Shown: one piece after another, positions 6,001 to 6,824 of the stretch
Position numbering within the stretch: the stretch's first letter is position 1
Layout of the letters: the number at the start of each line of letters is the position of its first letter
Virus record (IMG/VR): IMGVR_UViG_2548876698_000001
Span: 1-6,824 of that record
Strand: one strand, 5' to 3'
Length of the DNA stretch: 6,824 bases
Source of the DNA: a virus
Taxonomy: Duplodnaviria > Heunggongvirae > Uroviricota > Caudoviricetes
Position numbers: made by a program

Positions 6001-6824
6001 TCAGGTGCTGATACTGAACTCACCGGGAGGCACCCGGCACCATGCATATGGTTAACAGACACGTAGCGAAGCCCCTCTCCGGAGGGGCTTTTTTTATGGG
6101 CAAAAAAAGCCCGCGCTGGGAGACGCGGGCGGCAAGGAATAAACAACAAAACGTGAAGTAATATTTCAGCTGGCGAATAATACCCCATGGTAATCACTCT
6201 GCGCAACTGCGCGGCCTTTTTCGAATTGCGGGCTGTAAGTCTCCCTTCTGCCATTGTCCTGTAACTTCCGGACTTCAGCCCGCTCTTTATCTGATTCAGT
6301 ACACTATCCCGGCCGGGAGGATTCATGACATTTAAACATTACGATGTGGTCAGGGCGGCATCGCCGTCAGACCTTGCTGATGCACTTGCGCAAAAAATTC
6401 GTGAAGGATGGCAACCATACGGTGGGCCGTTTTCTTCGTATACGGATGATGGCGCAGCACTTATTCAGGCGATTGTCGCAGAAGGTGATGTGAGCACACC
6501 TGTTGTGGTGAAGCCGACAGGTGGAGAAGGTGCAGTAATCAGTGCCACCAGCGACCCGGAGTATTACTTTGTTGTGGTTCTGGCAGGGCAGTCAAACGGC
6601 ATGTCGTATGGTGAAGGTCTTCCGCTGCCGGAGACATATGACCGTCCGGAGCCGCGTATTAAGCAACTGGCGCGTCGCAGTACGGTGACACCGGGTGGTG
6701 CAGCATGCAGATATAACGACATCATTCCGGCGGACCATTGTCTGCATGATGTGCAGGACATGAGCCGTCTTAACCATCCGAAAGCGGACCTGTCAAAGGG
6801 GCAGTACGGAACCGTGGGGCAGGG

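Follow-up and report, generated by a model that had tools for sequence, protein, structure and literature searches.

The 6,824 nt window (the whole stretch of phage DNA analyzed here) is a mosaic. Positions 3670-5834 share 97% identity with Stx2a prophage Sp5 of Escherichia coli O157:H7 Sakai and contain NinG, the antiterminator Q, the late promoter pR', the StxS leader and the terminator tR'; from approximately 5711 on, identity to an O103 prophage is 99%, and the interval 5880-6330 is 100% identical to prophage DNA of many Shiga-toxigenic E. coli, including O103:H2 12009, O145:H28 and O157:H7. The Q gene (4938-5420, + strand; Pfam Phage_antitermQ, 173.9 bits, E 1.3e-51) is 97% identical to those of Sakai Sp5 and Sp15. 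The late-operon signals, all on the same strand, comprise pR' at 5408-5435 (promoter match TTTACG-N16-TATCAT), the StxS leader RNA at approximately 5442-5699 (97% identity to Sp5), and tR', the first terminator of the late operon, which appears as a hairpin followed by T6 at 5672-5699. The 6S RNA of phage lambda is a pR'-tR' leader RNA of the StxS kind. The pR' start and the tR' 3' end were mapped in Sp5 by Sy et al. (PMC7547250), and these positions convert to 5442 and 5699 in the window.

Downstream of tR', the O103-type part of the window contains the final 111 nt of a DNA methyltransferase gene, ending at 5821, followed by the region that is the subject of this analysis and by nanS-p, encoding a phage sialate O-acetylesterase, of which the 5' part (6325-6824, + strand; RefSeq, Pfam) is present before the gene runs off the window. 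On identical DNA RefSeq labels this gene a DUF6645 / SASA family carbohydrate esterase, Pfam places DUF1737 at its N-terminus, and in the identical O103 locus a holin and a lysozyme gene follow further downstream. The window contains no stx genes and, unlike its Sp4 and Sp5 homologues, no tRNA genes.

Between the methyltransferase remnant and nanS-p lies a gene for an STnc100-family small RNA, with a predicted extent of 5861-6101 (+ strand). The Rfam model RF02076 matches 5901-6101 along its entire length (model positions 1-206 of 206), scoring 148.1 bits (E 7e-34) where the gathering score is 47. We place the boundary of the module at approximately 5861 because conservation with Sp4 and Sp5 starts there, the DNA further upstream being unrelated. 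A member of the same family is found directly downstream of stx2B in Sp5 (208 bits), where it is known experimentally as EcOnc27/sRNA103 (PMC7873438); the homologue in Sp4 is EcOnc05, of ~222 nt (PMC4104026); and PasD of EPEC strain E2348/69 (PasD1/PasD2) has been reported as structurally related to STnc100, with PasD2 adjoining a sialic acid esterase gene near Q just as the STnc100 RNA of the window does (bioRxiv 10.64898/2026.05.13.724894). Judged by its sequence, the rightward RNA is a homologue of EcOnc05, EcOnc27/sRNA103 and PasD.

This RNA is predicted to end at an intrinsic terminator on the + strand, consisting of a 10-pair stem at 6068-6091 with loop UCCG and a T7 run at 6089-6095, which is also the 3' hairpin of the Rfam model. 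Only 6 bases (ATGGGC, 6096-6101) separate its T-run from the U-run of a second intrinsic terminator, read on the minus strand at 6102-6130, with an 8-pair stem at 6130-6109 (7 pairs G-C), a 6-nt loop and U7 at 6108-6102. The two are the strongest of 14 terminator-like sites found by the terminator scan in the window, and each is considered unidirectional because the scan lists neither on the other strand. Folded alone, the + hairpin reaches -21.7 kcal/mol (z -3.45, equalled in 0 of 200 shuffles) and the minus hairpin -16.9 kcal/mol (z -3.09, equalled in 1 of 200); at both sites a predicted G+C-rich hairpin stands directly before a U-tract on the transcribed strand.

The original prediction for this DNA had named a pair of back-to-back convergent terminators, and both were recovered as placed, in ranks 1 and 2. 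It had put them 130 bp upstream of nanS-p, which needs correction: with the ATG at 6325 the distance is 194 nt from 6130 and 257 nt from 6068. A bidirectional insulator, offered there as an alternative, holds only trivially, in that each of two convergent genes possesses its own terminator. Two aspects had been overlooked. The + terminator, the second downstream of pR' and ~400 nt past tR', is the end of a small RNA of the STnc100 family and hence more than a late-operon terminator, and the pair is a dyad of convergent Hfq-binding sRNAs that is already known and recurrent (PMC4104026, PMC7873438). In StxS-like systems the late-operon terminator gives rise, in lysogens, to a small RNA, and polymerase passes it once Q has acted (PMC7547250); the window carries that StxS/tR' unit too (5442-5699), but the terminator at 6068-6095 belongs to a different family, STnc100.

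Tree et al. (2014) crosslinked Hfq to RNA in O157:H7 Sakai and described convergent sRNAs between pR' and the late genes in at least 8 Sakai prophages (PMC4104026). A later review named the arrangement 'dyads' and called the reason for the layout unclear (PMC7873438). The window has what appears to be the same arrangement, in that two predicted non-coding units abut and converge at 6068-6095 (+) and 6130-6102 (-), with a promoter candidate facing the minus terminator, at a site downstream of Q and pR' and upstream of a conserved late ORF and the lysis genes. Table S2 of the Sakai study lists EcOnc05 (+, 1179806-1179914), EcOnc08 (-, 1179938-1180010) and EcOnc21 (-, 1180016-1180101) in Sp4 and the minus-strand Hfq peak EcOnc42 in Sp15; EcOnc08, EcOnc21 and EcOnc42 have one Northern probe in common and a size given as '~271 nt' (PMC4104026). 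Probe sequences were used to check the coordinate systems of these published peaks, and show that Sp4 positions are those of NC_002695.2 and that Sp5 and Sp15 are offset by ~142. After conversion the EcOnc08 peak covers window positions 6104-6176, and the stretch equivalent to EcOnc21 (Sp4) and EcOnc42 (Sp15) covers approximately 6178-6268, with peak coordinates converting to 6182-6267, also on the minus strand (coordinates from Table S2, PMC4104026). The Northern probe, AATAATATCCGACAGTAATCACTCTGCGCAATAGC, corresponds to window 6174-6208 and detects minus-strand RNA because it has the sequence of the + strand.

The window interval 6096-6200 (105 nt, no gaps) shares 94% identity with Sp4 and 93% with the Stx1 phage Sp15, and the flanks are the same in both copies, with an STnc100-type RNA to the left and a hairpin and nanS-p to the right. 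Experiments on near-identical copies have therefore already shown a leftward RNA, since the Sakai peaks and probe signal convert onto the minus strand here; published Hfq binding and in vivo detection of the dyad RNAs (EcOnc05, 08, 21 and 42) pertain to those 93-94% identical Sakai copies only (PMC4104026). Promoter hexamers and RNA body are identical to Sp4 and Sp15 except for the terminator loop and the promoter spacer. The window copy differs in its setting, a mosaic prophage in which an Sp5-like Q/pR'/StxS segment is joined to an O103-type methylase remnant, without stx. On sequence grounds, it is an allele of the EcOnc05/EcOnc08 dyad already described in E. coli O157:H7, and the convergent-terminator pair as such adds nothing past the 2014 publication. 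The published description of the Sp4 and Sp15 loci consists of Hfq peaks and the ~271-nt band only, and promoter, ends and function are absent from it. What the present analysis adds is a conserved promoter, predicted ends for a short RNA, the separation of the window's type of cassette (type A) from AgvB and AsxR, and an estimate of its prevalence, all of which is computational.

A predicted sigma-70 promoter for the minus-strand RNA occupies 6177-6206 (minus strand; -35 TTGCGC at 6206-6201, 18-nt spacer, -10 TATTAT at 6182-6177). At 9.2 it outscores every other minus-strand PWM candidate in 6090-6560, and scores of at least 9 occur at only 16 of 13,648 window positions; its -35 matches 3 of 6 consensus positions, and TTGCGC-N18-TATTAT is not listed by a separate promoter scan of the window. 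The -35 sits, on the complementary strand, within a conserved + strand hairpin (CUGCGC-AACU-GCGCGG at 6199-6214, then CCUUUUU to 6222; -9.1 kcal/mol, z -1.9). Weakly terminator-like itself, this hairpin is a homologue of the hairpin-plus-T8 at which the STnc100-like RNA of Sp11-type loci ends.

For comparison, 119 STnc100-anchored segments (IMG/VR phage contigs, the window, and the Sakai and O103 loci) were sorted by the DNA downstream. Type A is present in 34 of the 119 segments and a second type, B (AgvB/AsxR/EcOnc03), in 17; a further 18 have no dyad, their STnc100-like RNA ending at the hairpin and T8 (Sp11 type), and the remaining segments have other DNA downstream. Types A and B share one geometry, namely TTGCGC, an 18-nt spacer, a -10 (TATTAT in A, TAAAAT in B), a 5-nt discriminator and then the RNA. 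The -35 is TTGCGC in every variant of either type except one (TTGCAA), and the -10 and the length of the spacer are constant within each type, while the spacer sequence differs at 5-6 positions across type A variants. Fixed hexamers and spacing combined with a varying spacer sequence are as expected of a promoter. At the other end of the cassette, divergent relatives retain a 3' hairpin followed by U6-U9 on different stems (GCCCGUAU/AUGCGGGC, CCGCUC/GAGCGG, GCCCGUGC/GCGCGGGC); variants were folded one by one, since aligning them leaves the divergent stems out of register. The 5' part of the type A RNA is conserved, with core CUUCACGUUUU, and is unlike that of type B.

The type A cassette (window 6099-6210) is found in 992 of 5426 complete E. 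coli genomes (about 18%), at 1440 places and in up to 6 copies per genome, with 95-100% conservation across the 992 genomes. RefSeq has no feature under the cassette. It also occurs in 58 phage records, all of them Escherichia or Stx-converting phages, and in many Stx2a phages. A contig pattern search for wider taxa, loose in design (19 fixed bases and an 18-step gap), returned chance matches only, from unrelated phyla.

The ends of the short RNA are predicted from the promoter and by analogy with AsxR and AgvB. In type B (AgvB, AsxR) the base six positions past the -10 is the 5' end given both by Rfam and by 5' RACE-based sequences, which begin CGAUAAC... for AgvB and CGAUUAUU... for AsxR (Tree et al., PMC4104026). 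Because this start rule is applied, the window RNA is predicted to begin at A6171 and to measure 64-70 nt (6102-6171, minus strand). This EcOnc08-type RNA would read AGCUGAAAUAUUACUUCACGUUUUGUUGUUUAUUCCUUGCCG, followed by the hairpin and U7, and its limits agree within 2-5 nt with those of the EcOnc08 peak. The published probe could not detect it, because the probe lies upstream of its start. In the predicted fold approximately 40 nt are at most weakly structured and precede the GC hairpin and U7 tail, a build that would be typical of an Hfq-dependent trans-acting sRNA. We infer precisely where the short RNA starts and what its size is, the binding of Hfq by the window copy, and any function in trans. 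An earlier expectation of a leftward non-coding transcript, arising within 6130-6320 and ending near 6102, gains support from this promoter, the best candidate on the minus strand of 6090-6560 and located in that range with a start at ~6171, and from the minus-strand Hfq peaks and Northern signal in the 93-94% identical Sp4 and Sp15 copies.

We consider it likely that two convergent small-RNA genes, each ending in an intrinsic terminator of its own, form a dyad at 5861-6222, and that the leftward one makes a 64-70 nt RNA. The dyad would occupy the moron-insertion zone of a lambdoid Stx-type prophage, which extends from pR' to the first conserved late gene, nanS-p. Its rightward gene would produce the STnc100-family RNA ending at 6068-6095, and in a lysogen this terminator may serve as a second barrier past tR' (5672-5699), keeping transcription from nanS-p and the lysis genes, whereas upon induction Q-modified polymerase would pass through it; both the barrier role and its override by Q are read from the workings of lambdoid late operons. 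The leftward gene, as the local copy of EcOnc08, would be transcribed from the sigma-70 promoter at 6206-6177 into the 64-70 nt RNA, and its terminator would stop that RNA before it extends, as antisense, into STnc100, the moron and Q. The same terminator is probably also the end of a longer leftward transcript that starts nearer to or inside nanS-p. Dyads of this kind adjoin the genes for Shiga toxin and for lysis in the prophages responsible for the danger posed by E. coli O157 and related strains, and two RNAs of the same slot, AgvB and AsxR, are known to rewire host sRNA networks and to affect fitness in the animal host. The type A variant is common and unannotated in RefSeq, and its predicted promoter, ends and conserved core would make the RNA directly testable.

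A longer minus-strand transcript certainly exists in Sakai, and the ~271-nt band together with the EcOnc21/42 peak, which lies upstream of the predicted short-RNA start, means that it crosses the promoter of the short RNA. This raises the possibility, which we hold to be real but the less probable one, that the minus terminator serves only a long (~200-270 nt) cis-antisense RNA that starts at or inside the nanS-p start region, spans the ribosome-binding site and 5' UTR of that gene and controls nanS-p by pairing with the late mRNA, and that there is no short sRNA. The Northern size of ~271 nt, obtained with a probe at 6174-6208, fits such an RNA, as do the next-best promoter candidates, which overlap the nanS-p start codon and would give RNAs of ~194-195 nt: ATGTCA-N17-GATAGT in the window (score 7.2) and its stronger counterpart ATGCCA-N17-GATAAT in Sp4 and Sp15 (score 9.3). 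An RNA from this start-codon promoter would be antisense to the nanS-p ribosome-binding site. However, neither candidate yields 271 nt; an RNA of that length ending at 6102 would begin near 6372, inside nanS-p, and the PWM scan of the minus strand over 6090-6560 offers no convincing promoter there. TTGCGC-N18-TATTAT, by contrast, is conserved, promoter-like, and in the same position as the AsxR and AgvB promoters with their mapped primary 5' ends, and EcOnc08 is an Hfq peak separate from EcOnc21/42 whose limits fit the short RNA. The long cis-antisense RNA and the short sRNA are compatible with each other.

If the leftward RNA of the dyad is a short sRNA, its closest positional relatives are AsxR and AgvB, and it could belong with them as an anti-sRNA (sponge) with a 5' region that imitates an mRNA target site and titrates an sRNA of the core genome, although we think this rather unlikely. 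The likeness is one of architecture. Near AsxR/EcOnc27, in Sp5 (a 933W-type Stx2a prophage) downstream of stx2B, the layout is the same, with STnc100 (+) abutting the terminator of a minus-strand sRNA, then the hairpin and nanS-p; by Rfam, STnc100 at Sp5 3923-4128 (+) abuts AsxR at 4130-4182 (-). AgvB/EcOnc06 (Sp10, Sp17) has the same slot and promoter geometry, and is likewise a short RNA of Hfq type that combines an unstructured 5' part with a terminator hairpin. The window has the TTGCGC within the conserved hairpin, the 18-nt spacer and the 5-nt discriminator of AgvB and AsxR, and with these and EcOnc03 it shares a similar length and a terminator outline (GCCCG...CGGGC); sRNAs at these positions were treated as related groups by Tree et al. 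(PMC4104026).

The RNAs themselves differ. The Rfam models for AgvB (RF02702) and AsxR (RF02703) give no match at E<=1 in the window or at E<=10 in a 141 nt query (6085-6225), yet on Sp5 these models reach 88 and 41 bits, and we reject membership in either family. The ~42-nt 3' region of AgvB and AsxR, with its conserved block GUAUCUCAUGC...GCCCGAACCCAYUCGGGC, is absent from the alignment with the window RNA. The -35 TTGCGC and 18-nt spacer are the same as those of AsxR, but the -10 is TATTAT here and TAAAAT there, and no similarity to the Sp5 AsxR cassette is detectable over the 97 bp at 6102-6198. AgvB contains a C/A-rich GcvB target mimic, CACAACA, where the window RNA has the G/U-rich UUUUGUUGUUU, and the type A 5' part is conserved, not variable. 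Because their Rfam models do not match, function is not transferable from AgvB or AsxR, and FnrS, the demonstrated target of AsxR, cannot be assumed as a target of the window RNA. Predicted duplexes with GcvB and Spot 42, the two core sRNAs tried, were no better than those of shuffles and lend no support to a sponge for either, and a 7-nt identity to the R1 region of GcvB is not beyond chance.

Other known RNAs were tried as identities for the minus-strand RNA and rejected. OmrA-B (RF00079) scores 26.1 bits against 40, in a match carried by the terminator together with bases upstream of the predicted start, and an anti-hemB match is below threshold and terminator-driven. HnrS, a 66 nt multicopy prophage sRNA, equals EcOnc10/11/12 and lies ~5 kb away in Sp9, Sp10 and Sp12. 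PasA/PasC were set aside because PasA is on the other side of the esterase gene; the work on PasD does not describe a convergent partner at the site and likewise has PasA beyond that gene (bioRxiv 10.64898/2026.05.13.724894). A review lists the targets of EcOnc42, EcOnc21 and EcOnc08 as 'unknown' (PMC7873438), and our literature search found no later work on these three. As a separate, post hoc observation that we regard as a lead only, an 11-nt run of the window RNA, UUACUUCACGU, is identical to Spot 42 nt 40-50 (4 of 5000 shuffles).

A more elaborate proposal would make the minus RNA a distinct, unannotated Hfq-type sRNA family of ~65-70 nt ('type A') with its own promoter and with the conserved core lying within the Spot 42-identical run, the prophage thereby supplying a partial Spot 42 seed mimic beside a sialate esterase gene and retuning host carbon-source or sialic-acid regulation. 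Taken as a whole, this is improbable.

The dyad reading also faces two proposals in which the minus hairpin ends no small-RNA gene. It is very improbable that the hairpin is a chance or structural inverted repeat, for example a recombination leftover at a moron boundary: the region is indeed mosaic, and the same STnc100 core occurs with at least 4 downstream arrangements, many loci having no antisense cassette, but the hairpin and U7 are as strong as in a genuine terminator, divergent variants retain the hairpin-plus-U-run on different stems, it is faced by a conserved promoter, minus-strand RNA from the Sakai locus has been crosslinked to Hfq (PMC4104026), and the cassette is 95-100% conserved in 992 genomes. 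We give hardly any credence to a minus-strand protein gene as the transcribed unit, even though there is an ORF (5982-6326, 114 aa) and the annotation of Sakai Sp3 includes a comparable hypothetical ORF on the minus strand (ECs_0817), as the window ORF has no Pfam match, single-base indels that distinguish the window from Sakai Sp4 disrupt its frame, it passes through both terminators, as had been noted earlier of the sole minus ORF, and it is mostly antisense to a structured RNA gene.

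A complete unit comprising the late promoter pR', the StxS leader RNA and the leader terminator tR' lies at window 5408-5699 on the plus strand, with 97% identity to the Stx2a phage of E. coli O157:H7 Sakai, and the stx genes are absent downstream of it. Coordinate conversion places the published StxS transcription start at 5442 and the published 3' end at 5699 (PMC7547250). Because the unit is intact and no stx follows, the prophage carries the toxin-associated small RNA StxS without the toxin. Reading of the sequence also reveals a short hairpin within the StxS leader, CCGC-CGAUGC-GCGG followed by T8 (5467-5492, plus strand), which sits only ~25-50 nt past the point where pR' transcription starts and is missing from the list returned by the terminator scan of the window.

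Breakpoints in similarity to Sp15, Sp5 and an O103:H2 prophage delineate a recombination junction at approximately 5708-5821. Similarity to Sp15 (the Stx1 prophage of Sakai) stops at 5708 and that to Sp5 (Stx2a) at 5834, and from 5711 onward the window is 99% identical to the O103:H2 prophage. This O103:H2-like DNA opens inside a truncated remnant of a DNA methyltransferase gene, within the gene's final 111 nt.

Within the predicted 64-70 nt minus-strand small RNA (6102-6171), an 11-nt run at 6151-6161, UUACUUCACGU, matches Spot 42 nt 40-50 exactly and shares bases with the unpaired segment that is best conserved across the type A family of this RNA; identity of this length was reached in 4 of 5000 shuffles, a figure that attaches to a post hoc observation. 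The late-mRNA strand facing the body of the small RNA, GGAAUAAACAACAAAACG (6130-6150, plus strand), is rich in C and A. This stretch would lie inside the nanS-p 5' UTR of the antiterminated transcript. C/A-rich stretches are the type of target bound by GcvB.

One conserved inverted repeat at 6199-6222 forms a hairpin on the plus strand and carries the -35 element (6206-6201) of the predicted small RNA promoter on the minus strand. In the window the plus-strand hairpin is weak and terminator-like (-9.1 kcal/mol). Its homologue at loci of the Sakai Sp11 type is the terminator, with a T8 run, at which the STnc100-like RNA stops. The Sp15 copy of the locus (L006) has a C-to-A substitution in the small RNA terminator stem (GCCAGCG), in the homologue of 6109-6130. 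Termination may be leakier in this cryptic prophage, since with the substitution the entire RNA is predicted to fold at -11.9 kcal/mol instead of about -18 kcal/mol.

Farther upstream, three adjacent Rfam matches, all above threshold, occupy 2471-2669 on the plus strand: c4-a1b1 (50.6 bits), isrK (76.6 bits) and C4 antisense RNA (75.1 bits). The trio constitutes a C4 immunity RNA module of the P1/P7 type, with an ORF (2723-3400) directly downstream.
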